DNA of 64,000 nucleotides from sequence record MH791411.1; one strand, written 5' to 3'. This document shows, piece after piece, positions 8,091-51,264 of the stretch. Numbering within the stretch: position 1 is the stretch's first letter; the number at the start of each line of letters is the position of its first letter. This DNA is from Escherichia phage Ecwhy_1. Made by a program: the position numbers and the translations under genes. The notes below the pieces were generated by a model that was not told the DNA's origin, ran no database searches, and worked only from the letters and a program-made list of their open reading frames with translations.

Positions 8091-8199
8091 TTTAATACTC
8101 TCCATGTATGTTGTTACAAATATAATTATATCACCTTTTTCCAAGCTGTCCCGCTGAAAAAAGTAGAGAACGGAATTTTCCGTTCTCATTATTTAGTAC

Positions 8200-9609: not shown

Positions 9610-9629
9610 TTGTATTTCCTCGTTTAGTT

Positions 9630-9660
9630 AAGATAAAAGAAGGATACCATGTGGTATCCT
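9630..9660 (-). terminator. intergenic hairpin with U-run (partial terminator/attenuator between ATPase and VWA genes)
   Basis: Palindrome aggatacc-atgt-ggtatcct (9641-9660); on the minus strand it is followed by tcttttatct. Confidence 0.45.
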
Positions 9661-9684
9661 CCTTGTCAACACTCTTTTTAATTA

Positions 9685-11013
9685 TTAACCAAGAGAGCGT
9701 GCTTTACGTACTAGGTCAGAGTACTTCATAACGAAGTCTTTAAACGCTGGTACATCTTTAATCGTAATCGCTACTTTATGAAGCGTGATGGTACGAATCG
9801 CCAGTACTGCCAGTTCTGCTTGAGTTGCAGAGAAGTTATGGTCTAGGAAGGTGATGAAGTTGTTGCACAGCTTACCCCAATCTTCCACTGGTAGACGTTG
9901 TTCTTGCTTCTCATTGTAGAGGTCGATAATTTTGTAAACCAGATTCAGAGTGATGAAGTAGTTCGCGGAAATATCAAGCGAAGCATCAATCTCTTTAATC
10001 TCACCCTGTAGGATGGACATGGTATCTGGTAGTTTAGCTACGTTATCAACATACTCGATGTATTCAGTTGCTACGCCTTCACCAACACGACCTGCAATCA
10101 TCGCACGGAACACTTCTTTATCAATGTTCTTAACTTTCTTCAGATCTTCGTAGCGTGCTACTGCTTCCCATGAACGTGGAGAAGTACCACCACAGTGAGA
10201 AGGATCTTGTGGGCTAAGGGTGTTGAAGTGTTTAGCACCAGTGTTGTTGATGAACGCTACAGTTGCTGGGTTCAAACGCTTACCAATCGCATAATCGTTA
10301 ATCCAATCTTGATGATAAGGAATCATTTCGATGTGGGTCATACGGTCACGCAGTGGTGTAGCTAGAGAGAACGTTACACCGCCATCAGTTTCACGGTTAC
10401 CTGCTGCGAGAATCAGTGCAGTCTTAGGTAGCTTCATCTCACCAACACAACGGTCGAGGATTAGCTGATAAGACGCTGCCTGTACAATCGGCATTGCAGA
10501 GTTGATTTCGTCAAACAGAATAACACCTTTCCAATCTGGAGACAGTTTCAGTACTTTAGGTGCTGCCCACACAACTGCTGTTTCAGCGATGTAATCTTGT
10601 GCACTAGCCAGTTCAGATTCAATCAGTTGCTTACCATCCATATCAAGGAACACTTTCTCTGGAACTGGGATACCGCGAAGGTCACTTGGTTCAATCTGAG
10701 ACAAACGGAAATCGATAAAGTTAGTGTCTTGGTCGATTAGTTTGGCTTCAAACGCTGCCAGTTCACGGCGAAGTTGATCAGCATTTTCAGTATCAGCTTC
10801 GATTTGTTGTTTCATGAACTCAATTTTTGCCACGTTATCTTTACGCAGTGGGTAGTTCTCATCAGCGTATTGACGTGCGATAGCAGATTTACCGATACCA
10901 GGGCTACCCCAAATCATCAGGCTATCTTGAATCATGTCAGCCAGTGCCATTGCTTCTTTAGCTTTCTTAGGAGTCAGTTTTACGTTCAGGATATCGTTGT
11001 TTTGAGTAGACAT
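9685..11013 (-). CDS. MoxR/CobS-like AAA+ ATPase
   Basis: 442 aa; Walker A GSPGIGKS, Walker B ILFDEIN, and overall MoxR/CobS-like arrangement; AAGGAAA RBS. Confidence 0.8.
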   Translation of the reverse strand: MSTQNNDILNVKLTPKKAKEAMALADMIQDSLMIWGSPGIGKSAIARQYADENYPLRKDNVAKIEFMKQQIEADTENADQLRRELAAFEAKLIDQDTNFIDFRLSQIEPSDLRGIPVPEKVFLDMDGKQLIESELASAQDYIAETAVVWAAPKVLKLSPDWKGVILFDEINSAMPIVQAASYQLILDRCVGEMKLPKTALILAAGNRETDGGVTFSLATPLRDRMTHIEMIPYHQDWINDYAIGKRLNPATVAFINNTGAKHFNTLSPQDPSHCGGTSPRSWEAVARYEDLKKVKNIDKEVFRAMIAGRVGEGVATEYIEYVDNVAKLPDTMSILQGEIKEIDASLDISANYFITLNLVYKIIDLYNEKQEQRLPVEDWGKLCNNFITFLDHNFSATQAELAVLAIRTITLHKVAITIKDVPAFKDFVMKYSDLVRKARSLG

Positions 11014-11079
11014 GTATATTTTCCTTTTGTTGGATAAAATCGTTTAGGTTTCTATTATAGCCAATCCGTGGGCAAAAGT

Positions 11080-11122
11080 AAAGGAACTGTGTTAAAAGAA
11101 TTTTTAACTTATCAGTTCCTTT
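11080..11122 (-). promoter_or_regulatory. 10-bp-stem hairpin in the 5' leader of the ATPase gene
   Basis: Inverted repeat aaaggaactg (11080-11089) / cagttccttt (11113-11122), 23-nt loop, between the promoters and the ATG at 11013. Confidence 0.5.
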
Positions 11123-11179
11123 GTTACTTCATGAATCATCCGTGTATTTAAAAAGGCATTTCTCTTTGCCGTCTTGATG

Positions 11180-11212
11180 TGGTCATTATATCACATCGTT
11201 CAGGCTTGTCAA
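11180..11212 (-). promoter_or_regulatory. sigma70-type promoter P1 (consensus -35/-10, extended -10, A-rich UP-like tract)
   Basis: Minus strand reads TTGACA (plus 11207-11212), 16-nt spacer, TGaTATAAT (plus 11185-11193); A-rich tract upstream of -35. Confidence 0.55.
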
Positions 11213-11271
11213 CAACTTTTTTATTTCTTTTTCAATCTCACATCTTGTGATTTTGAAAACTTGCTTCGTGG

Positions 11272-11304
11272 TGGTCATTATAACACATCATTCGGCGTTG
11301 TCAA
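11272..11304 (-). promoter_or_regulatory. sigma70-type promoter P2 (tandem copy of P1)
   Basis: Minus strand reads TTGACA (plus 11299-11304), 16-nt spacer, TGtTATAAT (plus 11277-11285); part of a ~60-bp direct repeat with P1. Confidence 0.55.
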
Positions 11305-11329
11305 CATCTTTTTTTCTTTATTTTCGAAG

Positions 11330-11707
11330 CTACATGTGCATCGAAAATAACATTCTAAAATCATCACCACACAATGTTAACTCTGTAACTATCATTGCGT
11401 CCGAGAGGTATATGTACTGCCCTTCTACATAGTAGGGTGAAGTACATATCCTATCAAGCGATGTAAAGATTATAGAACTTTTGAACTCTCTTTGCAAGGG
11501 GATTTTTGTAAATTCGTAAAGAATGTTTTCTTTACAAATTGTATATCCAAACTTGCTAAGTCTTAAACCACCGCCAGTTCTGAAATTTTCAAAAATTGAC
11601 ATCAGAAGCATACGGTCTGTTAATTCAGCGTCTGATCCATGTACTTCTCTAACTTTTAAAAGTACATCGTTTTGAAATTCAGTACTGTTGTGTGGTTCAG
11701 GAATCAT
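11330..11707 (-). CDS. hypothetical protein
   Basis: 125-aa ORF ending just upstream of the tandem promoters. Confidence 0.45.
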   Translation of the reverse strand: MIPEPHNSTEFQNDVLLKVREVHGSDAELTDRMLLMSIFENFRTGGGLRLSKFGYTICKENILYEFTKIPLQREFKSSIIFTSLDRICTSPYYVEGQYIYLSDAMIVTELTLCGDDFRMLFSMHM

Positions 11708-18743: not shown

Positions 18744-19430
18744 TTAATTTTCGTAGAAGTTACTATCTGGTAGAGTAGTACTACTAATGTTGGTTTGTGC
18801 ACCACTAATAGAGGTAGCAGTGGATGGGTTACCGAAACCAGTAATTTCATCACCGAACGCTTCACCATTAGGACCGAGTTTTGCACAGCCGTCTGGTTGA
18901 ATTGTCATAGAAATAACTTGTGCTTCACTTGAGGAATAATCCCAGTCACCAAAGTTACTAGATTCGATAAAGCAGCCTTGACATACCCAAGTACTCAAAG
19001 TACCTTCAAAAAGGTTAGAAGTGTTTTCACTATTGGAGCCATCTAGCTCTTGAATCCACATTTCAAATTTGAACTGGGAATCAGTCATACGAGATTCTTG
19101 ACTGTAATAGTTAAATTCTTTACGCATTTGGTTATAAAGAGCTTTAGCAGAAGCATTACCAACTGAATCACGGAAAGCCACATCAATAGTATCCCAAGTA
19201 TACTTACCTTTATAGTGAGCAGAACTGTTATAACTATGCACAGTGACGTTTTCATGTGATACAGATACAGCACCAACGGTGTTGGTATCTAGGGTAATCA
19301 TATTGCCATCGTCGTTAGCACCGAAGCCAAAGAAAACAACACGGAATTTATATTTTGCTTTAGGTTGTTTCATAGAGATACGACCACCGCCAGCGAGCGG
19401 AACGCCATATCGATCAAGCATTGTAGCCAT
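18744..19430 (-). CDS. tail tube protein, paralogue A (probable major tube protein)
   Basis: 228 aa; AGGAG RBS; first gene after the sheath and followed by a strong terminator, as expected for an abundant structural protein. Confidence 0.75.
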   Translation of the reverse strand: MATMLDRYGVPLAGGGRISMKQPKAKYKFRVVFFGFGANDDGNMITLDTNTVGAVSVSHENVTVHSYNSSAHYKGKYTWDTIDVAFRDSVGNASAKALYNQMRKEFNYYSQESRMTDSQFKFEMWIQELDGSNSENTSNLFEGTLSTWVCQGCFIESSNFGDWDYSSSEAQVISMTIQPDGCAKLGPNGEAFGDEITGFGNPSTATSISGAQTNISSTTLPDSNFYEN

Positions 19431-19817: not shown

Positions 19818-22481
19818 TTATTGAGTCTTTTCAATACGAATAGGTACGTAAATGAAGTTGATAGACTTAGTAGGTTGGATTGCAATATCCATCCAAAGTT
19901 CGTTACGGTCAATACGTTCAGAAGTGTTGTTACTTTCGTCACAAACTACTGCGAAGTTATATAGACCTTGTTGTTGAACGATTTCAGCTAGGAAGCTATT
20001 CACTACACCACTGAATTCCTGACGAGTACTTGGAGTATTCAAACGGAATAGGAATGGTTCAGAGATGATTTCTAGTTGACGACGAATGTAAACAACCAAA
20101 CGAGCAACGTTAACACGGCTTAGTGCAGAGGTTTGGTTAGCAGATAGTGTTTTATCACCATATACTAGCAAGCCACGGTTAGGACGCATTGCAATTGGGT
20201 TAATGTTGTTGGTATACATCACGTCACGTTGACCTTGGTTGTATACTACTGGTTGATATTCACCTTCACTGTTAATGAAACCAGTACTTGCAGCGTTGGT
20301 TACAACACCACGAGTAGTACCAGCAGGTGGATACCACACATAACTAACACTATCACTGTACGCATAGGTACGCATTGCAACAGTACTGCCTGGAACTGCA
20401 ACTTCTTCACCATCAACGTTAGTACTTAAACACCAGCCCATGTACTGAGCAGCATAATCATATGCAGAAGTACGGCCTACTGAACCATTACTTGGTGCGT
20501 TGTTTGCGTTGGTAGCCCATTCTTGAACTGCACTACCGTTTCCGGTTGGGTTCAAACGAGCAGGTACATCAGTTACGATAAACGCTGTTTCTTTACGATC
20601 AGTGTTTAGGGTAATACATTCATCTAGAGTTTCTACATAACCAGGAACACAGATTAGGTTAAAGTTGATGAATTCAGAACGGATATCATCATTACCGATG
20701 ATTACAGCAGCTAGTGCTTCAACGATTAGTTTGCGTTGTGCTGCACGACCGAATAGACCTGCACCATCAAGACTAACACCACTAACAACTTGCCATTGAC
20801 CATTAACCATTTTCTTAACAACACCTTCGGTATTACCGAGGTCAATTGCAAGCATACCATTCTGATAAAGAGCAGCAGAAGCAACTTGTTCAGGGAAGTT
20901 AAAGTCAGCGAAAATCATACCGTTTAGAGTACTTTGGTCAGTATTGTCTAGTTTAACCCACTCACCATCAACGTTACGATAGAAATCATAACCATCAATT
21001 CCTTGAGATAGAGGGCGTACCCAAATTAGACGGTCTGCCGAAGGTTCATCAACTTGAACATATTTGTTATCTTCTTGTACTAGATCCCATTCGTCATTTG
21101 CAACATCTGCAATGTACATGGTAACAGTTAGGTTATCGGAATTACCGAAATCATACCAAATAGTACCGTCTTTAGCAATACTACGTGGAACAGAAGAGCT
21201 AACACGTAAGTTATTAACGTTAACTAGAGAATAGTTGTTACTATCTACAGTTAGTTTAGCTAGTTCATTCGCTGCAAAAATATCATCACCGCTTTGGGTA
21301 ACTTTAAAGCTATAACCTTTGGTGTTTGTAACTACCAAACCGCCATTAGATTCACGTTTGAATTTGAATCCATCATTGATAAGATCAGCACTAACATTTA
21401 GATTATCGATGATAGTTTGAGTATTAATTACGCCACCTTGTGGTACTGCAAGTACTTTAACAGATTTGTTTAGGTAAGCGAAAGTCAAATAACTATTTTC
21501 ACCAGCTTGCTCAATAACAGTTTCACCTAGTGGTACTGCTGGAGCACTAATTGCTGATAGTTTTGCACTTTGAATATAGAAAGAGAAACTCTTACTATCG
21601 TCATCAAAACGGCAAGCAATATAACTGTTGTTTAGTACACCACTCTTAGCTTCAACTTCTTGGAAAGAATTACCAGTATATGCTGGAACGATATTCCAAA
21701 CTTGAGTTAGAGATGCATAACGTTTTAGAACAAAGCGAGTGCCAAAATAGTTTGAACCATTTTGAGTATAACCATCACGAATCCATACGTTACCTTGTTC
21801 AACAGTTGAACCAACTGGAACTTTGTTGATTGGTGATAGATAAGTTTCAACCTGTACTAGACCAGATGCTGCACGTTTGTACATAAGCATTTGACCATTA
21901 CTTGGCTTATAACGTAGAACTAGATCATCAACGTTTAGACCAACTAGGCTAACATCGTCAACTTCTTCAGAACTTACGATGGTAACAGGCTTCAATTGCC
22001 AGTCATAGAAGCTGCTTGGGCTGTCTTTCTTAGCAACATAAGCTTCAATTTGTGATTGAGCAGCATCAAACCATAGAGTACCATTTGGTACTGGACCAGT
22101 TGGTGCAGTTGCACTTGGTGATAGTTGAGCTAAATCGATATCAGCACGAATAACATATGCACGGTTGGTGATGCCTAGATAAGAATACACAGCATGTAGA
22201 CCATATTCGTTTAGTTCGTCACCTTGAACAACTGAACCATTGTTCATTTGGAAAATTGGTGAGCCAAATGTATCTAGTGAGCTTTTCTGTGATGTTAGTA
22301 GCTGTAGTTTACCAGCGTTTGCTTTAGTGGTTCCCGCAGCGATTGCACTGCTACCAGGAACAAGTTTGTCTTCAGCAGTAGCGATTACAAATAGTGGTAC
22401 TGTGCCAGGAGCAGCAGCAGTACTCATACTTTCATCAGTTACTGAAATGGAAACGCCAGGTGAGAGTAGATCTCCTGCCAT
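19818..22481 (-). CDS. contractile tail sheath protein
   Basis: 887 aa; N-terminus MAGDLLSPGVSISV; C-terminal region (RVNVARLVVYIRRQ, VVCDESNNTSERIDRNEL, IQPTKSINFIYV) matches the conserved sheath C-terminal domain as I recall it from T4 gp18; GGAGGA RBS. Confidence 0.85.
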   Translation of the reverse strand: MAGDLLSPGVSISVTDESMSTAAAPGTVPLFVIATAEDKLVPGSSAIAAGTTKANAGKLQLLTSQKSSLDTFGSPIFQMNNGSVVQGDELNEYGLHAVYSYLGITNRAYVIRADIDLAQLSPSATAPTGPVPNGTLWFDAAQSQIEAYVAKKDSPSSFYDWQLKPVTIVSSEEVDDVSLVGLNVDDLVLRYKPSNGQMLMYKRAASGLVQVETYLSPINKVPVGSTVEQGNVWIRDGYTQNGSNYFGTRFVLKRYASLTQVWNIVPAYTGNSFQEVEAKSGVLNNSYIACRFDDDSKSFSFYIQSAKLSAISAPAVPLGETVIEQAGENSYLTFAYLNKSVKVLAVPQGGVINTQTIIDNLNVSADLINDGFKFKRESNGGLVVTNTKGYSFKVTQSGDDIFAANELAKLTVDSNNYSLVNVNNLRVSSSVPRSIAKDGTIWYDFGNSDNLTVTMYIADVANDEWDLVQEDNKYVQVDEPSADRLIWVRPLSQGIDGYDFYRNVDGEWVKLDNTDQSTLNGMIFADFNFPEQVASAALYQNGMLAIDLGNTEGVVKKMVNGQWQVVSGVSLDGAGLFGRAAQRKLIVEALAAVIIGNDDIRSEFINFNLICVPGYVETLDECITLNTDRKETAFIVTDVPARLNPTGNGSAVQEWATNANNAPSNGSVGRTSAYDYAAQYMGWCLSTNVDGEEVAVPGSTVAMRTYAYSDSVSYVWYPPAGTTRGVVTNAASTGFINSEGEYQPVVYNQGQRDVMYTNNINPIAMRPNRGLLVYGDKTLSANQTSALSRVNVARLVVYIRRQLEIISEPFLFRLNTPSTRQEFSGVVNSFLAEIVQQQGLYNFAVVCDESNNTSERIDRNELWMDIAIQPTKSINFIYVPIRIEKTQ

Positions 22482-40745: not shown

Positions 40746-41060
40746 TTAATCCTCGGATTTAATTTTAACCTTAACATCTTGATTTTGTAAATCACGAATA
40801 GTTTTAATTAATGCATCATGTTTTAGTGCACAGTCATTGTACATTGCATCCCATTTTACGAGTACTGCAAGAATTTCAGCACCATCATATCCTCTGAACC
40901 CGTTTTTATCGACCATGATTTTACTTGGTAGTGGTGTATTTTCGTCACAACGTTCAAGTAAGATTTCTTGTTCTACAATTGGCTTAGGTTGATACTTAAT
41001 TTCTTCAGCACAACCACTAATTAATAGAAAAGAAATTGCAAATACTAAAGCGTATTTCAT
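40746..41060 (-). CDS. outer-membrane spanin (o-spanin lipoprotein)
   Basis: 104 aa; signal peptide with lipobox LLISGC; directly downstream of and overlapping a TM plus coiled-coil protein. Confidence 0.55.
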   Translation of the reverse strand: MKYALVFAISFLLISGCAEEIKYQPKPIVEQEILLERCDENTPLPSKIMVDKNGFRGYDGAEILAVLVKWDAMYNDCALKHDALIKTIRDLQNQDVKVKIKSED

Positions 41061-41431
41061 TTGAATTTATTCCTCGCTGCAAGGGAATTCTGTTTAAGTT
41101 CATTCAGAAGTTTAACGCCATCTTCATCTAGACATACGTTTTTGTAAACTTCTCTTTCTACTATAATAGGCACTTGTGTCTCAATAACTTTAGCATTATC
41201 TTGCATTATCTTTTTGGTTTCTATATAGTTTTTTGCATTTTCTTGCTGCATCTTAGCGAGTGCAGAATCAACTTTCTTTTCTATTTTTTGGTCAATACTT
41301 TCTTTATAACCAGTATAATAAGTATTTGCTGACCATCCACCGTAAACACAACCTGCCATTACTCCTACTACCAAAATTGGTTTCCAATATGGTATTAAAA
41401 CTTTTGAAACAATAATTTCTAGTACACTCAT
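41057..41431 (-). CDS. inner-membrane spanin (i-spanin)
   Basis: 124 aa; N-terminal TM helix (ILVVGVMAGCVYGGW) followed by a charged coiled-coil-like periplasmic domain; stop overlaps the o-spanin start. Confidence 0.5.
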   Translation of the reverse strand: MSVLEIIVSKVLIPYWKPILVVGVMAGCVYGGWSANTYYTGYKESIDQKIEKKVDSALAKMQQENAKNYIETKKIMQDNAKVIETQVPIIVEREVYKNVCLDEDGVKLLNELKQNSLAARNKFK

Positions 41432-41484: not shown

Positions 41485-41901
41485 TTACAACATTTTTTGA
41501 ATATGATCTACGAGTTTATACAGTTTAGTGTTTTCATTCTCGTATTCCAAATCAACTTCAACTTTGAATTCTTCTTCAAGTTCCATGATCATTTCAATCC
41601 AGTCAAGCCAATCGAATTTAAATTTTTCCACGACTTCACATTTAGTAAGATGGAAGTTCATTGATACATCTTTTTCGGATGCATTTTTGTCGCGACTTGT
41701 AATGAATTTGACAATTGCTTTTTCAACGTCAGTTAATTCACGAGTGCGATATTCTGGTTCAAGATACCATTCGCCATTATTGATAGCTTCCAACGAAAGT
41801 CTAAGTTCATGCATTAGTTTATAACGATCAGTACTTTTATGGATGCGGTTAACTTCGCGATTCAGTACACGTAGTGCGTCTTTGATTTGTTCGTTTAGCA
41901 T
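41485..41901 (-). CDS. hypothetical protein
   Basis: Track start 41940 overlaps the upstream gene; the ATG at 41901 has an AAGAGGA RBS. Confidence 0.45.
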   Translation of the reverse strand: MLNEQIKDALRVLNREVNRIHKSTDRYKLMHELRLSLEAINNGEWYLEPEYRTRELTDVEKAIVKFITSRDKNASEKDVSMNFHLTKCEVVEKFKFDWLDWIEMIMELEEEFKVEVDLEYENENTKLYKLVDHIQKML

Positions 41902-41911
41902 AACAATCCTC

Positions 41912-43150
41912 TTATTTTTTACTGTACCATTGCATTTCACGGATATCTAATAGTACCTTCGTAGCCAACTTTATGTTTGGTCGCTTCGGTAGATGGGTCT
42001 TATGATACGCCACATTTCGGATGTAGTCAACCTTTTCGTTGAAATAATCCATAACTTCTTGATACAACCACTTCCCGTTACGAATGTCCATCAACATAGC
42101 AGCATCCGGTCGGTGAACTTGGATGATACCAGTTTCAAGTGCTTCCTGTGCTGTATTCAGCAGCCTGACTGTATGCATTGCGTGTTTACAATCATAACCG
42201 TGGTGTGATTCAAGAATAGCACGTTTGGCATTACGATTCTGCTTCCATTTGTGATAACTCTTACGGTTCTCACTATTTTCTTTGTATTCTTTTTCATTGA
42301 ATTTTACAATGAGTTCAGGACGAACTTTCAATTCTTCTGTAGTACGTTCTTTGTTGAAGTAACGTAGTGAACCATCAGCATTCACTGTACTTTCATTCGG
42401 GTTGATAATTACCCCAAAGATGTTTTCACCGTAATGGATTAGTTCATATCCAGAATTGTAATTCAATAAATTGAAATCACGATCTAATACTTTATCAGTA
42501 CTATAATTATGTACTAAACGTACAAAATGATATTGTTTCAATGCTTGTGTTGAAACTAATTGTAATGAAGTATCACGCATGTATTTTTCAAAATCAATTT
42601 TTGTAGCATTGAATGGGTGAAGATTGGATTTATTCAAACGGTCAACCAAATACTGCGGAAATGTATCATACATCCATGAAAGTACTTCGTCAACTGGATG
42701 TTCTTCTAAAATTTCATTTAGTTTACGTTCAGCAATTCGTTCCTTATCGAGCCAGCCGTGGTGATTAGACATACGCTTAACCTGATTGTATGCATATCCA
42801 CTGTATGAGTGTGCAATCTTTGAACTCAATAATTGCTGATTGAATGAGCGTAGATAGTCATAGATTTCAGTACTTTCTACGATGTGTTCCGGTTTAACCC
42901 ATAGTGATTCAAGAATGTTTGGGTTAGCTTCAGTATACAGACTTAAGTACTGATTGATTTCATAAAATTTAGTATCTTCTTCAGAAGTATCTGAAACTTC
43001 CTTAACATTAAAAAAAGGAGTTAGGATATATTCTTTGTTTGCAAGGAAGATACCACGATAATCTGTATCACTTTCTGGTGTGCTTGTGCCATACGCCTGT
43101 GAACCAGCTAAGTGTTTCACAATAGTTTGTTCTAGAAAATTGTTTTTCAT
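41912..43150 (-). CDS. Pol-beta-superfamily nucleotidyltransferase
   Basis: 412 aa; N-terminal GSQAYGTSTPESDTDYRGIF fits the GS-x(9-13)-DxD nucleotidyltransferase signature. Substrate unknown. Confidence 0.6.
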   Translation of the reverse strand: MKNNFLEQTIVKHLAGSQAYGTSTPESDTDYRGIFLANKEYILTPFFNVKEVSDTSEEDTKFYEINQYLSLYTEANPNILESLWVKPEHIVESTEIYDYLRSFNQQLLSSKIAHSYSGYAYNQVKRMSNHHGWLDKERIAERKLNEILEEHPVDEVLSWMYDTFPQYLVDRLNKSNLHPFNATKIDFEKYMRDTSLQLVSTQALKQYHFVRLVHNYSTDKVLDRDFNLLNYNSGYELIHYGENIFGVIINPNESTVNADGSLRYFNKERTTEELKVRPELIVKFNEKEYKENSENRKSYHKWKQNRNAKRAILESHHGYDCKHAMHTVRLLNTAQEALETGIIQVHRPDAAMLMDIRNGKWLYQEVMDYFNEKVDYIRNVAYHKTHLPKRPNIKLATKVLLDIREMQWYSKK

Positions 43151-43548
43151 AAGTAAATCGTTAACTCCTTTAGAAAACCATTATAGTATCGTTTAAAATC
43201 ATGATCCAGTACTTGATAGTCATTGTAACTAAATCCAAGATTGATGATGGTATCTTCTTGGAAGAATTTCTCTTCATTCATTACTTCGATGGGTTCGTAT
43301 TCTTTCCCACCTTTACATACTTTAGTAAAGAACATACCATCATTGTTAATTTCAACGTACATGAAATTATTTTCTGGATCTCGTGGACACACAATGTTTA
43401 GTGAACTTGTCCCATTGTTATTATATTCGTATGAAATAATATCAAAAGAATCGATGCCATAACATTTGGACTTTTCTTTGTCACCAAAGACTTTTCTATC
43501 TGTACTCATATTGCGTATAGTACTGTAGATATCATCGATTGTAGTCAT
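43147..43548 (-). CDS. hypothetical protein
   Basis: 133-aa ORF. Confidence 0.45.
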   Translation of the reverse strand: MTTIDDIYSTIRNMSTDRKVFGDKEKSKCYGIDSFDIISYEYNNNGTSSLNIVCPRDPENNFMYVEINNDGMFFTKVCKGGKEYEPIEVMNEEKFFQEDTIINLGFSYNDYQVLDHDFKRYYNGFLKELTIYL

Positions 43549-43550
43549 AA

Positions 43551-44060
43551 TTAACCACCGTACTTTGACTTATATGTTTCTAAAGATAAAGAAATGCGAT
43601 TTTGCTTTTTAATTCTTTCATCAATATCCTTTGAATTCTTAACACTTCTGTATACATCAGCTAATAAATTATAATCTTCTTTATTTGAGCTATGTAATGC
43701 CCAACCTATATCTGTTTTGATTCGAACATATGCTTTATTTGATGTGAAATAAAAATTGAATCCGTTAGACCCATCAAAAATATCATAAGTATTTACCCAA
43801 TCTCCATAAGGAAAACTCATTGGTACTGACTCATAATCAATGGTGATATCCGATAAATTTTTAGAACAGTACTTTACAAAGTGGTAAACAATCGGATCAC
43901 ATTTTGATAATTCGTATTTGTATTCAATGATAGTTTTTCTATTAGTATCATTGATGGCATATTCTTTTATCAATGGACTTTTTTTGATGATAAGAGTCCA
44001 TAGAAACGATTCTAATCCAGTTTCATCAACTTTTTCTTTCTTTTTGAAAAATGAAATCAT
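43551..44060 (-). CDS. hypothetical protein, tandem paralogue 3 of 3
   Basis: 169 aa; shares the N-terminal pattern T-x2-(D)R-x3-I/L-E-x-KY-x-LSK with the two upstream genes. Confidence 0.5.
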   Translation of the reverse strand: MISFFKKKEKVDETGLESFLWTLIIKKSPLIKEYAINDTNRKTIIEYKYELSKCDPIVYHFVKYCSKNLSDITIDYESVPMSFPYGDWVNTYDIFDGSNGFNFYFTSNKAYVRIKTDIGWALHSSNKEDYNLLADVYRSVKNSKDIDERIKKQNRISLSLETYKSKYGG

Positions 44061-44578
44061 TTATATAAACCCTTAATTTTCTGTCTATTATGTATATCAT
44101 TTTGCTGAATTTTCAAATTAGTAAGATTGTGTCTTACACCTTCAACGCCACGCATTATTTGTAACATAATTAGTGATTCGTCATATGTTAGAACATTGCT
44201 ATTATTATCGATATATACTTTCACTCCACTTTCAAGATAATCATTTTCTTTGGAGTTAAAGTTTCTAATAGCAAACTTAACGCCATTTGTTGCATCACTG
44301 AATACATATCGTTCCGCACCGTAGAATGTTTTTCCACGAAATAAACCGCCTTCTTCAAACTTCCAACGACTGGATTCATAATCATTAACGTAATCAATGA
44401 TTAATGGTAGCAAAGGGTGTTTGCTCAATTTATATTTTGCTTCTAACAGAACACGACGATCTTGATCTGTATTGATGATATCTTTAAGTGTGAAACTTTT
44501 TGATATAATTTTAAAGATAATTTCATGCCAAATTAAAGTACTGTTTTGTTTTCCAACTGGGCCAAAAAACATATTCAT
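44057..44578 (-). CDS. hypothetical protein, tandem paralogue 2 of 3
   Basis: 173 aa; TDQDRRVLLEAKYKLSK motif. Confidence 0.5.
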   Translation of the reverse strand: MNMFFGPVGKQNSTLIWHEIIFKIISKSFTLKDIINTDQDRRVLLEAKYKLSKHPLLPLIIDYVNDYESSRWKFEEGGLFRGKTFYGAERYVFSDATNGVKFAIRNFNSKENDYLESGVKVYIDNNSNVLTYDESLIMLQIMRGVEGVRHNLTNLKIQQNDIHNRQKIKGLYK

Positions 44579-44584
44579 TCCTCA

Positions 44585-45151
44585 TTAGTATAAATCAGTA
44601 ATGTCTTTGTATGCATTAATCTGTTTTTGTTGTAATGAAAGTTCATTGAGTTTAGTTACCATTTTATCTACACCAACACGTATATAGAAAATAATAAATG
44701 AATCTAACTTGCCTAGAGTAATTCTTGAACTGTAAGTTGAAAGTTTTCTTGCATAAACATAAATTTCTTCTTCACTTGGTAAACGTTTCTCAATCAGCAA
44801 GTTTTCCACACCATTCGGCTCATAATCAATCTCGAACTCTACGCCTATCACAGTATCTTGAATGATATCAGTATATGAACCACCGAAAAAAAACTCTCTT
44901 GGTTTGGTTCTCCAACGAGGACTAAATGGGTCAGATGCGTATTCTTTTACAAATTTGTAAAAGGACATTTTACTGAGCATATACTTCATCTCAATTAGTG
45001 CTTTGCGGTCATCATCAGTTTTAAACTCTGCTTTGAGCGATGGACTTTTACACAGTAACTTAACTAAATTGTTGTACATCTTTAATGTACGTTGGTCTTT
45101 CATTTCTTGGATTTTGTGACGCTTTGGTGGTGGTAGTAAAGATTTGACCAT
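44585..45151 (-). CDS. hypothetical protein, tandem paralogue 1 of 3
   Basis: 188 aa; TDDDRKALIEMKYMLSK motif. Confidence 0.5.
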   Translation of the reverse strand: MVKSLLPPPKRHKIQEMKDQRTLKMYNNLVKLLCKSPSLKAEFKTDDDRKALIEMKYMLSKMSFYKFVKEYASDPFSPRWRTKPREFFFGGSYTDIIQDTVIGVEFEIDYEPNGVENLLIEKRLPSEEEIYVYARKLSTYSSRITLGKLDSFIIFYIRVGVDKMVTKLNELSLQQKQINAYKDITDLY

Positions 45152-45184
45152 AATTTCCTCCTGTATTTTCTAGCATTATACACA

Positions 45185-45214
45185 TAAAAGAAAAGCCCGT
45201 CAATAGACGAGCTT
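45185..45214 (-). terminator. rho-independent terminator after a fibre gene
   Basis: Hairpin aagcccgtc-aata-gacgagctt (45193-45214, one mismatch); on the minus strand followed by ttttctttt. Confidence 0.6.
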
Positions 45215-45221
45215 AAAATTT

Positions 45222-47951
45222 TTAATGCCAACGTGTACCAGAGCTTGAAGGAACACCAGTACTTGCGGGGATAGCAGAACCACGCTTGGTCGTACTAGGT
45301 CTGTATGTCAAGAATCGGGTTACCTTTTCAGTATCAATTGACGTAATACTCGTACTTCCAGTAACAATATCACCAACATATACGTTTGTCAATGTCTCAT
45401 CAAGAAGAGTTGTACTGATAACGTATGCCGCTTTTCTTGTGTTACGGTTCATTTGAATGTAAAGATAAAAAGTACTGTTAGCTGGGTTAGTTTTAATAGT
45501 ACTTAATTCTATGGTTTGAATCGCCAATCTATCAAACATACCACCAAGGAATACCGGAACTTCACGGGTGAAGTACACAGTGAAACCTTCAGCAACATCT
45601 TGTGAAACTACTACGATTTTATCTTGTACAGTTCCTGAACCATCAATCAACCCATCCATCTGTGCTGATGTTGTCCCAAAGAGACTAAACACTGCTTTAG
45701 TTTGATAATCTGAATCTTGAAGATGATAGTATCCAAATCCAACACCTGGTATAACTCCGTGCTGGAATGCATTGCCATTATCTATGTAGCTGGATGACAT
45801 AAATCGGTTAGATGTAATCAAACCATTCACTGTTTTAGCAATCATCAATTTGAATTGAGCATTACCAGGTTGTGAAAACTGATGAACTGCATCAACACCA
45901 ATATAACCAAAACCAGAATACTTAGCAACAGTTAGACCAGTACAGCGTTTCATATAGGCTTCGGTTACAATACCTGTTACAGAATTAAGTGTTTCGTATC
46001 TAGAACTCACCATAGACGCAGAACTAATATTGGTTCCTGAAACCGTGACATCAACTTCAGAATATATTGCATAACCTTGGTTATTTCCTAAGTTATATGC
46101 AGAAACCACCGCAATAGATTTTGAGAAAGAACTATCTGGTACATAATATAAAGCAATTTTACCAGAAAATGCTCCTACTATTCCAATATTAGCAAGTATT
46201 TCTTGTTTTAATGTTTCCAGAACATTATCACCAATTGTATAAGAACCATCAAATTCTAAAGTATCTGGGTTAAACAAACCACCACTTGTTTTGTATACAC
46301 CTTCAATGAATGATGTCCCATAACATTTAACTGAACCGTCAGTATCAATTAGTGAAATCATACCTGTATATTTGAAATCATCACCAAGACGAGTTCGGTT
46401 AGCTTGTGGTGCAAAACCATTAAGTGTTGTATTGTTTTGTACTGAATTGAACTGGAAGGTTGGATCAGTACCAATTTCAGAAAATACTGTATTGTTATAA
46501 CCATATGACTCATCTTCATATGTTCCAGAACATGCTAACAGTACTTTACGTTTATCAATAAAACGTGTTCCTAAAAGGTTTTCACCTACTGCACTACCAT
46601 ATGTTGGGGCAACGTTTACAAATTTAGAATTGTTCGCTTTGCGAGTACTGGCAACCCAACTATCATATGGTGTTCCTGTTACGTTATAAACCTGAATACC
46701 ATAGGTTTCAGAAGAACTCCAACGAGCACGTGTGCTGAATACTAAACCGTCATAGGTTTGGCATATAGAACCAACGTTACCTAATTGTGGAACACCTAAC
46801 TGTGTACCCATGAAGTTATTCATCTCAATGGCAAATGGGTTTGTTAGTGTGAATCCATCAACATCATTATATTCCGCTGCTATTGGTGCTCTACTACTTC
46901 CATCAATTGATAATGATTTAGAGTTGATAGTATAAACAAAACTAAAACCACTAGCATAAACAGTACTAATATATAGATTTGATACTAAACGGTTAGTTGG
47001 GAATAATGTAATTCTAATCTTTGATAAATCTGGACTTACGTTTGCTTGTATATTATAATCTGTATAATCTGAATATTCAACTCGTGTAACTGGTGAAGTG
47101 CATTCAAATAATGAATCACTACTAGTTCCAACTGAATATAATCTTTCATAAATTTTCAAATTATTAGCACTTGTGTAGTTAACACTTCTTAAGGTTTGAC
47201 CAGAAAAACCAGTAACCTTAGCAAAAGTACTCATAGTACCATCTTTAATACTACTTGTATTAACAGTATATAATGTTAAAGCCAAACCATAGTTTGCTAT
47301 AGTAGTGTCTTTGCACCACACAAATACTTTATCATTAACGATATGTGCATACAATGGTTTATCTGTACCAAATGATGTAGCAGCGATAGAAGCGTGAATA
47401 TGTGCAACTTCGTTAAATGTACCATTTGTTAAAGTGAAAATATAATTACTTGCACTAGATAGGCTAACTAGTAATTCATAACCATTCGTTCCGATGAACT
47501 GTTTAACATTTTCAGTACTTGGAAGAATTCTAGGATGATATTTTGATGTAGTACTGATAACACTACTTTGTGTTAGTGCATCAATATTACGCAAATCACG
47601 AATGAATGCATAGTAATATCCTTCAGTACTACCATTTGTACCAGCACGTAATACCACACCAGTACCATCATCTTCGACTATTGTTGGTTGCATACGGTAT
47701 ACATCTGAAAGCGACGTTGCCCCTTCGTATGAACCATTAACGTTTAATGGTAGATAATCCATTTCCCCTATACGGGAGATTGGTAACATATCAAGTATTT
47801 TTTGAACTTCTGATCTTTTATAAATTGGATAGTCAACAATACCTGTATTTGCGTCTGGTGCTGTACCATTAAAAGTACGCATAGCGTACTTTCCACCAAT
47901 TGCCAAATTTCCAAGTATAGCAGCACTACCAATGATGCGTTTGGATGACAT
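45222..47951 (-). CDS. tail fibre / receptor-binding protein, paralogue 1
   Basis: 909 aa; conserved N-terminal (LPISRIGEMDYLP) and C-terminal (TYRPSTTKRGSAIPASTG ... GTRWH) modules shared with 47968..48555 and 48568..51264; Asn/Ser/Thr/Gly-rich centre. Confidence 0.7.
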   Translation of the reverse strand: MSSKRIIGSAAILGNLAIGGKYAMRTFNGTAPDANTGIVDYPIYKRSEVQKILDMLPISRIGEMDYLPLNVNGSYEGATSLSDVYRMQPTIVEDDGTGVVLRAGTNGSTEGYYYAFIRDLRNIDALTQSSVISTTSKYHPRILPSTENVKQFIGTNGYELLVSLSSASNYIFTLTNGTFNEVAHIHASIAATSFGTDKPLYAHIVNDKVFVWCKDTTIANYGLALTLYTVNTSSIKDGTMSTFAKVTGFSGQTLRSVNYTSANNLKIYERLYSVGTSSDSLFECTSPVTRVEYSDYTDYNIQANVSPDLSKIRITLFPTNRLVSNLYISTVYASGFSFVYTINSKSLSIDGSSRAPIAAEYNDVDGFTLTNPFAIEMNNFMGTQLGVPQLGNVGSICQTYDGLVFSTRARWSSSETYGIQVYNVTGTPYDSWVASTRKANNSKFVNVAPTYGSAVGENLLGTRFIDKRKVLLACSGTYEDESYGYNNTVFSEIGTDPTFQFNSVQNNTTLNGFAPQANRTRLGDDFKYTGMISLIDTDGSVKCYGTSFIEGVYKTSGGLFNPDTLEFDGSYTIGDNVLETLKQEILANIGIVGAFSGKIALYYVPDSSFSKSIAVVSAYNLGNNQGYAIYSEVDVTVSGTNISSASMVSSRYETLNSVTGIVTEAYMKRCTGLTVAKYSGFGYIGVDAVHQFSQPGNAQFKLMIAKTVNGLITSNRFMSSSYIDNGNAFQHGVIPGVGFGYYHLQDSDYQTKAVFSLFGTTSAQMDGLIDGSGTVQDKIVVVSQDVAEGFTVYFTREVPVFLGGMFDRLAIQTIELSTIKTNPANSTFYLYIQMNRNTRKAAYVISTTLLDETLTNVYVGDIVTGSTSITSIDTEKVTRFLTYRPSTTKRGSAIPASTGVPSSSGTRWH

Positions 47952-47967
47952 ATTCTTTTTCCTTTAA

Positions 47968-48555
47968 TTACCAGCCTAATGTACCAGTTTGTGTTGGATT
48001 TCCAGTACTGACTGGGAAAGATGAACCTTTTTGTGTTGTACTTGGTCTGTATGTATTGAATCGTGATACGCGTTCAATGTTGATAGCAGTAATACCAGAA
48101 GTTCCAACGGTAATAGTCCCGATGAACATTATAATCTGTGATTCTTGTAATTGTGAAGTTGAGATTCTATAAATTGGCTCTCCCAGTACTAAAGTAGCGT
48201 ATACATATTGTGTTTGTGTGCCTGATGCCACTGTTGGTGCTGTCACTGCAACAACAGGGTAATTATAAAGATAGCCACCGATGAATGCAGGTATCTCTCG
48301 GTTAAAACGTAATGAATAACCGCTTGATGTAATTGACAAACTAGATACATCATAAAGTTCACCATATTGTGATAATGGTAAACCGTTAACAATAGAATCA
48401 ACTTCATCTTTTGTTAAGAGGGGGAATGTACATTCCCCATTTGCGTCTGTTCGATACGATACGTCATTAATATCACTAATAGATAGTCCAGTGTTTTTAT
48501 TCTGGACTACGATTTGTGACATAGCTTCGATATCGGATCTTATAATATATGCCAT
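47968..48555 (-). CDS. short fibre-family protein (N- and C-terminal modules only)
   Basis: 195 aa; LPLSQYGELY at the N-terminus and FNTYRPSTTQKGSSFPVSTGNPTQTGTLGW at the C-terminus match the two long fibre genes; no central domain. Confidence 0.6.
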   Translation of the reverse strand: MAYIIRSDIEAMSQIVVQNKNTGLSISDINDVSYRTDANGECTFPLLTKDEVDSIVNGLPLSQYGELYDVSSLSITSSGYSLRFNREIPAFIGGYLYNYPVVAVTAPTVASGTQTQYVYATLVLGEPIYRISTSQLQESQIIMFIGTITVGTSGITAINIERVSRFNTYRPSTTQKGSSFPVSTGNPTQTGTLGW

Positions 48556-48567
48556 AAGATTAATCCT

Positions 48568-51264
48568 TTACCAATTGATTGTTCCTGTTTGTGACGGTAG
48601 ACCATAACTAACTGGGAATGAAGAACCAGCAGCTTCAAGAGACGCACCGAAAATATCCAATCTTGAACGTTTTTGTATGTTAACATTTGATATTTGTAGT
48701 GAGTTTGTTTGTATAGTACCTATCCAGAAAATATTATATGCTGTAGAACCAGTTTCTGAAATAACATCAGTTGTTATTACATATTTTGCATTACCTTGTT
48801 CCATTTTAACATATACATGAAATAATGTGTTTGCTGGATTAGCCTTAACTGTAGTTAAGTTTATACTAGTAATCGGTAATGTAAATGCTTTACCAGAAAG
48901 AATTACTGGAGTTTCTTCTGTGAAGTACACAATAAAACCTTGAGCAACGTCTTGTGAAACTACGTTAATCGGTGCACCTTGAGCAGTCCAGTTATTATAA
49001 TCAGCAATTGTAGTACCACATTTTTGGAAAGTCATTTTGTTTACATAGTCTATTGCTTGGAAATAACCAAAACCAATACCAGGTAAAGCTGCTGGTTGAA
49101 TACCTTGCTCATAACTTGCATGTGAACCACTGATAATAAAACTATCAAATTGTGCAGTTGCTTTTGTTACATATGCTCTGAATTGGTGTGTGTTTGTATT
49201 ACCAATAGTTGGGTGAGATAATGGGTCAGAACCACCTATGAAGTAGAAAGAACCACCATCATATATTGTTAAACCAACAGAAGACGAAGCAAAACTACCA
49301 TTACCATTTGGTGTAAAGTTACTTCCGTAAACGTTTTCTAGTACTAAACGCTTGAAGGTAATTGTAGTGATATTACCTGAACGTGTATTCACATTCACTT
49401 CAGCAATTCTAATATAGTTCTGATATGTATTTGTAACTGTACTTAGCATTACGAATGCAGGTATATCAGTTTGTTGTGGAACAAACAATGTCATATCTTT
49501 ATAAGCAGCGGAAGATAAGTTCCAGTCGCTTAGTACTTTGGCGTATTCAGCATTTCTGAAATTATCAAGTACAGATTGAGTAACACTAATGATACCAGTT
49601 CCGTTCATATTTTTATCATATGATAGTGATTGGGAATATCTCTGACCTACCATGAATATCCCACCATTTGTAGTAACATTATTACCACTAATGGAACTAA
49701 TAAAAACTCTGTTGTTCGTGTTATCTGTCACATTAGCACGTTCTGTTGTTGGCTCATAACCTTGTATGGTTCCACGTGATAAAGAATTAAACGTAAAGTT
49801 AGGAGTACTTTTATGAACTGCATAAGATGGACGGAATGCACCAGAACCAGTTGAACGAGAATACTGTTTAGTACTGTTCCCTGGAAGCAATTCTACGCCG
49901 TTAATAAAAGAACCAACTGCTGAACCAAATGAAGGACGAACTATGCCATTTCTGAAATCAGTTGAAATGTTCGCACGTACATTAATCATGCTATATATTG
50001 ATTGTGCAGTAAATTTAGCTTTCTGCATAAGCAATGGTTCTGCTAAGTTTGGACATGCAGTACAGAATACTTCACCTGTATTCAGATAATAATATGAACT
50101 GTAAATGTTTCTTGCACCGCTATGGTCATATAAAGGATCTTTGTTGAGAACGTTACCAGTAGCAACCAATGCCGAACCTGTGTTTGTAACAACAAATGGT
50201 GCAGCAAATGTACCAATATCGTTCCCATTATCCAAGTTACATTGTTTAGTACTCATGTTAAAATTGAAACTATAACTATGCTGTGGTCGGGTATTGTAGT
50301 TTGCCATAGTGAACCATGCGTCACCATTCATTCTGAATCGGAAGTTCTGCGTTCCTGGCTCCTGAGCAACATATAAATCGATAGATGTCATATAAATCCC
50401 CATACCAGCCAAATTTTGTGGTACATAGACATATGGCTTATCAGCAATATTAGTTGAGTTAACATGGTCAGTAATGATTATATTATTCTGAGCAGTATAT
50501 GTAGTATTGTAAAAAGTTTTTGTTGTCCATCCCGTGATTCGGGTAGCAGTATAAGTACCGTTTGCAATATTCAATACAACACGAACAACAACAATCTGTA
50601 GTTTGTTATTTTCATTAAGGACGTTGAATACATAAACTGAACCGTCTTCTGCCATCATAGCATACTCAATCCCACCTTCAGGTGAAATATCAGCTTGGTT
50701 CACAAAAAGACCACTATGTTGTGTATCATCCAATGTACCATTCGTTACTGATATAAACAACCCATTAGTATTGGTAGATGTGTCATTGTAACGACCTAAT
50801 AGTATTTTTGAATCAGTATTGTATAAACCAATAGCAACACGGTTTGCCCCAAAATAGCCAGGCTTATACTGACGGCTTGTATTAACAGTACGGCTCATAT
50901 CGGTAACGGATAATGCGTTCGCTAGGTAAGAATAAAATAAACCTTCAACACTACCGTTTGTACCACTACGTAATAGTACTAATGTGCCATCGTTTTCTAA
51001 AAGTATTTTGTTTCTACGTTGGGATTGGTTTTCTGATGCACCATTAAAATCACCAGATACCCCAGCAGGTAGATAGTTATGTGTACCATAATGCGAGATT
51101 GGAAGTAAACTAATTACATCAAGTAATTCTTCTTTGGAATATGTATCAATTTCCATATTACCATTAGCATCAAATACTTGATCATTGATGCCCTGTACTG
51201 TTCTTTTCCCTTTAACTGTCACATTATGAGTGACGTCTAAGCCACCATATATTTTCTTTGACAT
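48568..51264 (-). CDS. tail fibre / receptor-binding protein, paralogue 2
   Basis: 898 aa; N-terminal LLPISHYGTHNYLP, C-terminal module ending GTINW; AAGGA RBS. Confidence 0.7.
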   Translation of the reverse strand: MSKKIYGGLDVTHNVTVKGKRTVQGINDQVFDANGNMEIDTYSKEELLDVISLLPISHYGTHNYLPAGVSGDFNGASENQSQRRNKILLENDGTLVLLRSGTNGSVEGLFYSYLANALSVTDMSRTVNTSRQYKPGYFGANRVAIGLYNTDSKILLGRYNDTSTNTNGLFISVTNGTLDDTQHSGLFVNQADISPEGGIEYAMMAEDGSVYVFNVLNENNKLQIVVVRVVLNIANGTYTATRITGWTTKTFYNTTYTAQNNIIITDHVNSTNIADKPYVYVPQNLAGMGIYMTSIDLYVAQEPGTQNFRFRMNGDAWFTMANYNTRPQHSYSFNFNMSTKQCNLDNGNDIGTFAAPFVVTNTGSALVATGNVLNKDPLYDHSGARNIYSSYYYLNTGEVFCTACPNLAEPLLMQKAKFTAQSIYSMINVRANISTDFRNGIVRPSFGSAVGSFINGVELLPGNSTKQYSRSTGSGAFRPSYAVHKSTPNFTFNSLSRGTIQGYEPTTERANVTDNTNNRVFISSISGNNVTTNGGIFMVGQRYSQSLSYDKNMNGTGIISVTQSVLDNFRNAEYAKVLSDWNLSSAAYKDMTLFVPQQTDIPAFVMLSTVTNTYQNYIRIAEVNVNTRSGNITTITFKRLVLENVYGSNFTPNGNGSFASSSVGLTIYDGGSFYFIGGSDPLSHPTIGNTNTHQFRAYVTKATAQFDSFIISGSHASYEQGIQPAALPGIGFGYFQAIDYVNKMTFQKCGTTIADYNNWTAQGAPINVVSQDVAQGFIVYFTEETPVILSGKAFTLPITSINLTTVKANPANTLFHVYVKMEQGNAKYVITTDVISETGSTAYNIFWIGTIQTNSLQISNVNIQKRSRLDIFGASLEAAGSSFPVSYGLPSQTGTINW

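Follow-up and report, generated by a model that had tools for sequence, protein, structure and literature searches.

A hypervariable three-gene cassette between fibre-like genes and an RNA-repair gene string in Rak2-like jumbo phages, and its possible role in host interaction

Rak2-like jumbo phages, such as PBECO4, 121Q, RaK2 and K64-1, are in therapy development, and about 80% of their genes are without a known function. A stretch of 64,000 nucleotides from Escherichia phage Ecwhy_1 (MH791411.1), called the window throughout, raises the question on a small scale: what is the role of three small genes, here named A, B and C, that lie side by side just 3′ of a fibre-like gene? The first-pass annotation took them for tandem paralogues, diverging beyond a shared N-terminal module and lying beside a fibre gene, and proposed that they are either fibre chaperones or accessory factors, or rapidly evolving host-interaction or anti-defence genes. 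The description has held, with strong diversification beside genes for fibre-like virion proteins; the chaperone option is not supported. The locus emerges as a delimited, recombining and hypervariable three-gene module between receptor-binding genes and an RNA-repair operon. Our reading of it, to which we give a probability of roughly 0.4, is that of a counter-defence or host-takeover module exchanged between lineages by recombination, and not of a set of fibre chaperones.

As for the genes themselves, the three open reading frames (ORFs) are present on the minus strand where they had been placed. Only the start of B is most likely to be moved, from 44578 to 44572 (MFFG...), which gives a protein of 171 amino acids: a GAGGA ribosome-binding site lies 6 nucleotides 5′ of the latter position, and both the orthologues and the GenBank annotation agree with it. 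About 5.5 kb around the array are 100% identical to Escherichia phage fEgEco12 (PP777464.1, 374.7 kb), a Rak2-like jumbo phage; for the PBECO4/121Q/G17/phAPEC6 group, which are Asteriusvirus jumbo phages, the figure is about 80%. In fEgEco12 the three genes are g245, g246 and g247, each deposited as hypothetical.

Are these genes really related to one another? A, B and C are true paralogues, and not three unrelated genes with a motif in common. The BLASTP comparison of A with B gives E = 8e-16 and 30% identity across 175 residues, which is the full length, and those of B with C and of A with C give 1e-5 and 2e-5. The N-terminal motif, as first described, is exact in A (TDDDRKALIEMKYMLSK) and in B (TDQDRRVLLEAKYKLSK) and only approximate in C (NDTNRKTIIEYKYELSK). 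The accompanying picture of a conserved N-terminal module followed by divergence is right in quantitative terms: when 27 non-redundant members are compared pair by pair, identity averages 33% over residues 17-65, the helical region, and 17-19% over the beta region and the C-terminal helix that make up the remainder. It is not right if it is taken to mean unrelated bodies, because homology runs from end to end and a tyrosine at the C-terminus is invariant in these divergent members. Since the remainder is homologous and, in the model described below, folds as one unit, the genes are full-length paralogues rather than carriers of a shared module on unrelated bodies.

Profile comparisons extend this relationship. 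The profile matched by A and B is phrog_18641, and that matched by C is phrog_7868; reciprocal cross-hits link the two, B aligning with phrog_7868 over its full length as well (4e-10). Judged by these matches, phrog_18641 and phrog_7868, which are split in PHROGs, are one family with two ancient subtypes. In the window no further copy was found beyond the three, and tblastn on the fEgEco12 record gives three family places in total.

Another question is what these proteins look like. An AlphaFold2 model of B, made from a 34-sequence alignment, is confident (predicted local distance difference test, pLDDT, 85.6; predicted template modelling score, pTM, 0.78); a first model, built on 11 sequences, was of poor quality (pLDDT 66) and was set aside. 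In the predicted structure, four N-terminal helices (residues 17-65) are followed by a small beta-sheet, whose loops are poorly ordered and rich in indels (residues 72-123), and by a 40-residue helix at the C-terminus (residues 132-171). A Foldseek search of the PDB finds no neighbour at E <= 0.001, and the matches in BFVD are limited to uncharacterised proteins of related phages. Pfam returns no family for A, B or C at E <= 0.1, and NCBIfam and the PDB sequences give no significant match. All three proteins are basic, with isoelectric points (pI) of 8.6-9.3, hydrophilic and without membrane segments. If the model is right, the family is structurally new, having no match to known folds in the PDB search.

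How far does the family reach? When 1.84 billion representatives were searched exhaustively with HMMER at a cut-off of E <= 1e-3, 32 clusters were collected, nearly all of them of 150-197 amino acids and matched over their full length. A first, word-indexed homologue search had given 12 clusters, which the exhaustive search exposed as a limit of sensitivity, and its repeat with a wide alignment also gave few proteins. One match of 2,278 amino acids (P0033) in the exhaustive search was rejected as a repetitive, low-complexity artefact (hhalign probability 0.1). By tblastn the members are confined to Rak2-like jumbo phages. Asteriusvirus, with its E. coli and Salmonella phages, has three copies; the Klebsiella phages of Alcyoneusvirus have two (RaK2 gp001 and gp002, K64-1, Muenster 235 and 236); CBB and GAP32 of Mimasvirus have four each; a metagenomic lineage has two; and members are also present in the Yersinia phages fHe-Yen9-03 and fHe-Yen9-04. 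The copy-number comparison across related phages, which had been proposed with the first-pass annotation, therefore gives two to four per genome.

In a neighbour-joining tree the copies show positional orthology. Positions 1 and 2 correspond to clades A and B, the first Klebsiella copy is the sister of A+B, and position 3 is clade C, which includes RaK2 gp002 and CBB_153; it follows from this topology that at least two subtypes are older than the split of the genera. The AB-type and C-type subtypes stand in a fixed order across three genera. The surroundings recur as well, as is seen when the Klebsiella phages, A4, JNE01, a metagenomic Asteriusvirus contig, CBB, GAP32 and a distant metagenomic contig are compared: in all lineages the order is fibre or spike genes, a terminator plus a promoter, two to four family members, a phrog_22376 protein and a nucleotidyltransferase of the RlaP family. 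CBB and GAP32 have genes for Thg1, DUF4326 and an N4-cytosine methyltransferase inserted among their paralogues, and there too the transferase lies downstream. On the distant metagenomic contig, RlaP is directly preceded by a string that consists of a fibre-like gene (phrog_33406), one family member, DUF4326 and another family member. The position 3′ of receptor-binding-type genes, noticed at first in the window, is kept in Asteriusvirus, Alcyoneusvirus, Mimasvirus and the metagenomic lineage, that is, in all those examined. The fibre or spike genes next to the array belong to unrelated families in different genera.

Where, then, does the divergence of the array begin and end? The nucleotide identity to G17 is 85-99% (mostly 89-99%) exactly across 43555-45204 and 71-84% in both flanks. 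The synonymous divergence (dS) from G17 is 0.12 for A, 0.20 for B and 0.51 for C, and exceeds 1 in the flanks. When A4 and JNE01 are compared by blastn, both flanks align and 43551-45140 does not. On the fibre side, the recombination block stops precisely where the fibre gene has its stop codon. Taken together, the identity blocks, the dS values and the blastn gap define the three ORFs as a discrete cassette with exact boundaries.

The proteins behave in the same way. Identity to G17 is 92, 91 and 92% for A, B and C, 89% for the next gene, g248, 82% for the transferase and 85, 72 and 73% for the fibre-side genes g242, g243 and g244. With JNE01 the values are 28, 35 and 35% for the paralogues, 63% for g248, 74% for the transferase and 77, 73 and 65% for g242, g243 and g244; with A4 they are 35, 31 and 39%, 62%, 87%, and 53, 41 and 49%. 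These comparisons indicate that the cassette alleles are very old and divergent, that they have recently been exchanged between clades by recombination at the conserved flanks, and that the evolution of the cassette is independent of that of the fibres and of the transferase alike. The divergence is high relative to the neighbouring genes, as it is in counter-defence cassettes in general.

Old alleles are not the same as fast-changing ones. Between fEgEco12 and G17 the ratio of nonsynonymous to synonymous substitution rates (dN/dS) is 0.30, 0.22 and 0.07 for A, B and C, which points to purifying selection, and among close variants the variation is modestly enriched in the beta/loop region. Rapid diversification between close relatives, or a current arms race, is ruled out by these ratios. 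Of the two options first proposed, that of rapidly evolving host-interaction or anti-defence genes fits the data best, the pattern being that of old, very divergent alleles that recombination has exchanged.

Related to these questions is the way in which the cassette is expressed. A terminator had been noted between the fibre gene and the array, and it is there, as a hairpin that reads from 45214 to 45193 and is followed by a T-run. Five Asteriusvirus lineages share it almost unchanged, the stem in A4 having a compensatory change, and G17 carries a terminator annotation at the same place. The −35 box of a putative sigma70-like promoter sits in the loop and the descending arm of this hairpin, and the promoter is followed by an AGGAGG ribosome-binding site and then by the start of A. 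The −10 box is TATAAT in G17 and A4 and TATACT in JNE01 and in locus L012; the Klebsiella phage Muenster has an equivalent TTGACA-17-TAAAAT after the terminator, and CBB has two such sites. The terminator-promoter element is conserved though the ORFs directly after it are hypervariable. The design itself, with a promoter overlapping a hairpin (45175-45214), is found also in G17, A4, JNE01, Muenster and, twice, in CBB.

The full T4-type late promoter TATAAATA occurs nowhere in the window, and the motif ATAAATA, described as late-type for CBB (PMC5259590), was taken in place of that T4 box. Of about 30 larger intergenic gaps examined on the coding strand, three have it, and the genes that follow them are the one at 19818-22481, the one at 18744-19430 and the fibre gene g242. 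It was not found upstream of the cassette. The gene at 19818-22481 is a probable tail sheath, assigned by its size match to phAPEC6 gp277c. PA5oct, a related phage, is dependent on the host RNA polymerase.

On the other side, the array runs into its neighbours almost without interruption. Between A and B there are 12 nucleotides, the stop of B overlaps the start of C (ATGA), 2 nucleotides separate C from g248, and g248 overlaps the start of the transferase gene by 4. By this spacing the array is translationally coupled to g248 and the RlaP gene in one gene string. The position of g248 is kept in the Klebsiella phages; the idea that it is a fourth, degenerate family copy was ruled out (hhalign probability 0.2). 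The transferase is predicted from its Pfam match to be an RlaP-family nucleotidyltransferase, and it is homologous to T4 NrdC.11 (BLASTP E = 2e-13). Enzymes of the RlaP family extend damaged 3′ ends of RNA by one or two nucleotides, restoring the function of transfer RNA (tRNA) (PMC12776372), and in jumbo phages RlaP is regarded as RNA repair against host RNases (PMC7824862).

Such a partner brings to mind that the paralogues could be nucleic-acid-binding regulators, whose basic N-terminal helices would bind DNA or RNA and which would either modulate the expression of phage or host genes or direct or aid RlaP at its RNA substrates. The basic pI of 8.6-9.3, the conserved K, R, S and Y residues within the helices, the operon shared with an RNA 3′-end repair enzyme and the interleaving with Thg1 in CBB would all suit this role. 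No helix-turn-helix or RNA-binding family is matched at E <= 0.1, however, and the RlaP of T4 is without such a partner. Moreover, conserved tRNA or promoter targets would not predict orthologues of only 28-39% identity while the transferase keeps 74-87%. Regulators are a doubtful answer, and rank behind the chaperones, which are considered next.

Fibre or spike assembly chaperones would transiently bind nascent fibres, whether these are encoded upstream or at another place in the genome, aid their trimerisation or attachment and stay out of the virion. The neighbourhood invites this thought. The fibre-like gene g244 next to the array has a paralogue, g242, whose orthologue gp323c was detected in phAPEC6 virions, and CBB_148 and CBB_149 carry a structural-protein annotation; in each lineage examined, fibre or spike genes directly precede the array, and most Asteriusvirus genomes have fibre genes on both sides of the operon. 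Among 62 proteins of phAPEC6 virions, gp314c and gp315c were detected besides gp323c, and gp319c-gp321c, the orthologues of the three paralogues, were absent (PMC7247149), so that the paralogues are non-virion according to this one proteome. In the phAPEC6 record (L004, MK817115) the g244 and g243 orthologues at 8120-11453, corresponding to 45222-48555 of the window, are unannotated, with reading frames that are intact by tblastn; their own absence from the published proteome is therefore uninformative.

The resemblance goes further. Tfa of Mu, P2 and lambda, Pam3 gp25, and T4 gp38 and gp57A are small, are encoded just 3′ of fibre genes and are often missing from the virion, and the Tfa-type chaperones combine one conserved and one variable module with helices able to oligomerise (PMC9608196). 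The present proteins, with about 170-190 amino acids, no place in the phAPEC6 virion proteome, one conserved and one variable part and a long helix that could oligomerise, are similar in all these respects.

In the details, the two groups part company. In the Tfa-type proteins it is the N-terminal domain that varies and the C-terminal one that is conserved; TfaMu and Pam3 gp25 fold as a beta-sandwich fibre-binding domain followed by a conserved C-terminal helical trimerisation domain. Here the polarity is opposite, with a conserved N-terminal module. They have one gene per fibre, whereas here there are two to four ancient paralogues, a number that does not follow the number of adjacent fibres. 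Neither the Pfam family Caudo_TAP (PF02413) nor, in the PDB fold search, TfaMu (5YVQ) or any other chaperone is matched, and the PHROG matches are only to families of unknown function. The conserved terminator and promoter stand between the array and the fibre gene, and the family persists in the Klebsiella phages although the neighbouring receptor-binding genes there are unrelated. Last, the paralogues do not co-vary with the fibres: against G17 they are 91-92% identical while the fibres are at 72-85%, and against JNE01 the relation is inverted, 28-35% versus 65-77%. Chaperones are, on balance, unlikely.

What remains is a role towards the host. The decoupled evolution, the regulatory element of its own, the absence from the virion and the string with an RNA-repair enzyme together make host interaction or counter-defence the best reading of the cassette. 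Its mechanism might be as follows. The host RNA polymerase would probably transcribe the cassette from its own sigma70-type promoter, and A, B and C would be translated in one string with the 133-amino-acid acidic g248 product and the RlaP RNA-repair nucleotidyltransferase. The conserved N-terminal helical module may supply a common core or the contact with a partner, and the variable beta-sheet and loop part may recognise a variable target outside the conserved machinery of the phage. The most likely targets would be factors of the host, such as defence nucleases that attack RNA or tRNA; alternatively, they could be other strain-specific defences to which the co-expressed repair enzyme also responds.

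A bolder form of the same idea, which we consider rather unlikely, is that these are counter-defence proteins of jumbo phages that form a class new in structure, in which the N-terminal module docks onto a common partner and each beta region neutralises a different strain-specific nuclease or immune effector beside RlaP repair, with cassettes swapped at the terminator-promoter element and at the g248 boundary. In more general terms, the array resembles the hypervariable counter-defence or accessory cassettes known from phages, such as anti-defence genes clustered in early regions: these have a sigma70-type promoter of their own (in the array a putative one), small, soluble, non-virion products, extreme divergence between otherwise similar genomes and recombination at conserved flanks.

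Several points weigh against a counter-defence role. The first is that the array follows fibre or spike genes in every lineage examined, as it might if its function had to do with fibres; as the genomes of the clade are broadly collinear, neither this adjacency nor that of the transferase proves a functional coupling. Nor does the family follow the transferase in its divergence, and T4 has an RlaP homologue and no detectable family member. In PADLOC, a library of defence and not of anti-defence models, there is one marginal match (DUF2290, E 0.004), for gene A only. The promoter is a consensus match from which its function is deduced, the literature holds no transcriptome for these genera, and the expression timing, cytoplasmic action, target and counter-defence role are all things that we infer. 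Finally, a scan found no terminator between the promoter of the array and the spanin genes (40746-41431), so the transcription unit appears to run into genes that are normally late.

Could the variable partner be another phage instead of the host? In that case the paralogues would serve inter-phage competition or superinfection exclusion, and their divergent alleles would define incompatibility groups among Rak2-like phages. Discrete and very divergent alleles with exact boundaries and a recent exchange between clades would be expected of such a system; the promoter suggests that expression is probably early, and the proteins are non-virion. They have, on the other hand, none of the membrane segments or signal peptides of many exclusion proteins and no homology to known ones, and nothing points specifically in this direction, which makes exclusion quite improbable.

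There is also the sober answer that the genes have no specific role and are dispensable, weakly constrained filler of a plastic region. In T4, the region from nrdC to tk is plastic and largely non-essential, and its genes are early. The wider neighbourhood of the window, with nrdD, nrdG, RlaP, rI.-1 and tk, mirrors the T4 nrdD-nrdC.11-tk region, in which nrdC.1 to nrdC.10 are likewise small hypothetical genes, and Salmonella phage SD-1_S14, like the unverified CMSTMSU record, has truncated or internally deleted copies of the paralogues. The two regions differ in that the gene order is reversed relative to transcription and that T4 is without fibre genes there. A search for homology to T4 NrdC.1-10, MobD.1, Pin, gp49.2 and gp49.3 found none, the transferase alone having a match, to NrdC.11. 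Filler would hardly be retained in two to four copies with a fixed subtype order across three genera, nor would one expect of it dN/dS values of 0.07-0.30, residues that are invariant across 27 divergent members, or a confident and compact AlphaFold model. Of all the readings, this one is the least probable.

Hypervariable accessory cassettes are a known kind of element in phage genomes. The present genes had been hypothetical, covered by two PHROGs without function, and neither the fEgEco12 genome paper nor the other Asteriusvirus papers found mention them. New here are their unification as one family, the lack of a known fold, the exact boundaries combined with hypervariability and recent exchange, and the coupling to the RlaP operon. 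If it is true that the cassette sets the growth of the phage in a given strain after adsorption, it would be a second determinant of host range beside the fibres, would offer itself for engineering and would yield new inhibitors of bacterial immunity. Should it turn out to be a fibre chaperone of a new kind, it would be relevant to the expression or swapping of the unusual fibres of these phages. Under either reading, the exact boundaries make a cassette deletion or an allele swap easy to design. The coordinates of the features are collected in Table 1.

Table 1. Features of the cassette and its surroundings in the window, in the direction away from the fibre-like genes
Feature	Coordinates	Strand	pI	Remarks
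g242	48568-51264	-		898 amino acids; context; late-type ATAAATA motif upstream
g243	47968-48555	-		195 amino acids; context, 5′ of g244
g244	45222..47951	-		fibre-like protein of 909 amino acids; phrog_3573; context, outside the cassette
Intrinsic terminator hairpin	45193..45214	-		AAGCTCGTC-TATT-GACGGGCTT plus T-run; would end the upstream fibre transcription unit
Putative sigma70-like promoter	45175..45203	-		TTGACG-17-TATAAT; 11/12 consensus matches
Paralogue A (g245)	44585..45151	-	9.2	188 amino acids; phrog_18641, 9.6e-78; orthologues 121Q_502, phAPEC6 gp321c
Paralogue B (g246)	44057..44578	-	9.3	phrog_18641, 2.9e-80; orthologues 121Q_503, phAPEC6 gp320c
Paralogue C (g247)	43551..44060	-	8.6	169 amino acids; C-subtype; phrog_7868, 2.2e-52; orthologues 121Q_504, phAPEC6 gp319c, RaK2 gp002, CBB_153
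g248	43147..43548	-	4.5	acidic protein of 133 amino acids; phrog_22376
Predicted RlaP-family (PF10127) Pol-beta nucleotidyltransferase gene	41912..43150	-		Pfam 63 bits against a cut-off of 23

As for the state of the array in other genomes, the CMSTMSU record (L002, MH494197, flagged UNVERIFIED) has many frameshift-like breaks across the region, and in Salmonella phage SD-1_S14 (P0006, P0012) A is internally deleted and B is truncated. These breaks and damaged copies could be either sequencing errors or real decay.

Further observations concern the other end of the operon. On one metagenomic contig (L015, 4121-5639) a second array of small paralogues, three copies of about 165 amino acids that belong to phrog_10375, lies directly 3′ of the RlaP gene. 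The Klebsiella phages and CBB have small genes of similar size 3′ of RlaP (as at L005, 12106-13571), which are candidate members of phrog_10375. In Asteriusvirus this position is occupied by a fibre module and an ACP-like gene. The fibre module, about 3.5 kb in G17, phAPEC6, A4 and JNE01, consists of a 2,790-bp fibre gene (phAPEC6 gp314c, found in virions), a fibre-like ORF of about 540-630 bp and gp315c. The window is without it at the 41901-41912 junction, and in its place the transferase ORF (41912-43150) overlaps the ACP-like ORF (41485-41940).

No tRNA genes or Rfam families were found in the window. Two tandem, perfect (12/12) sigma70 promoters (TTGACA-16-TATAAT) are present on the minus strand at 11165-11320. 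An A-rich tract precedes each of them, and both are in a gap of 316 nucleotides upstream of the gene at 9685-11013, in which there is no tRNA or Rfam RNA. Two genes at 40746-41431, for which the fEgEco12 record has the names "cell division protein FtsB" and "lytic conversion lipoprotein", have as their homologues in the Klebsiella phage Muenster a pair annotated as i-spanin and o-spanin.

A last observation concerns the fibre side. The products of g242, g243 and g244 (45222-51264) have in common a C-terminal domain of about 120 amino acids, which ends in ...RPSTT.(K/R)GS..P.S.G.P...GT..W. It is through this shared domain only (residues ~77-195 of g243) that g243 matches the large fibre-like proteins g242 and g244, of which it looks like a miniature version.

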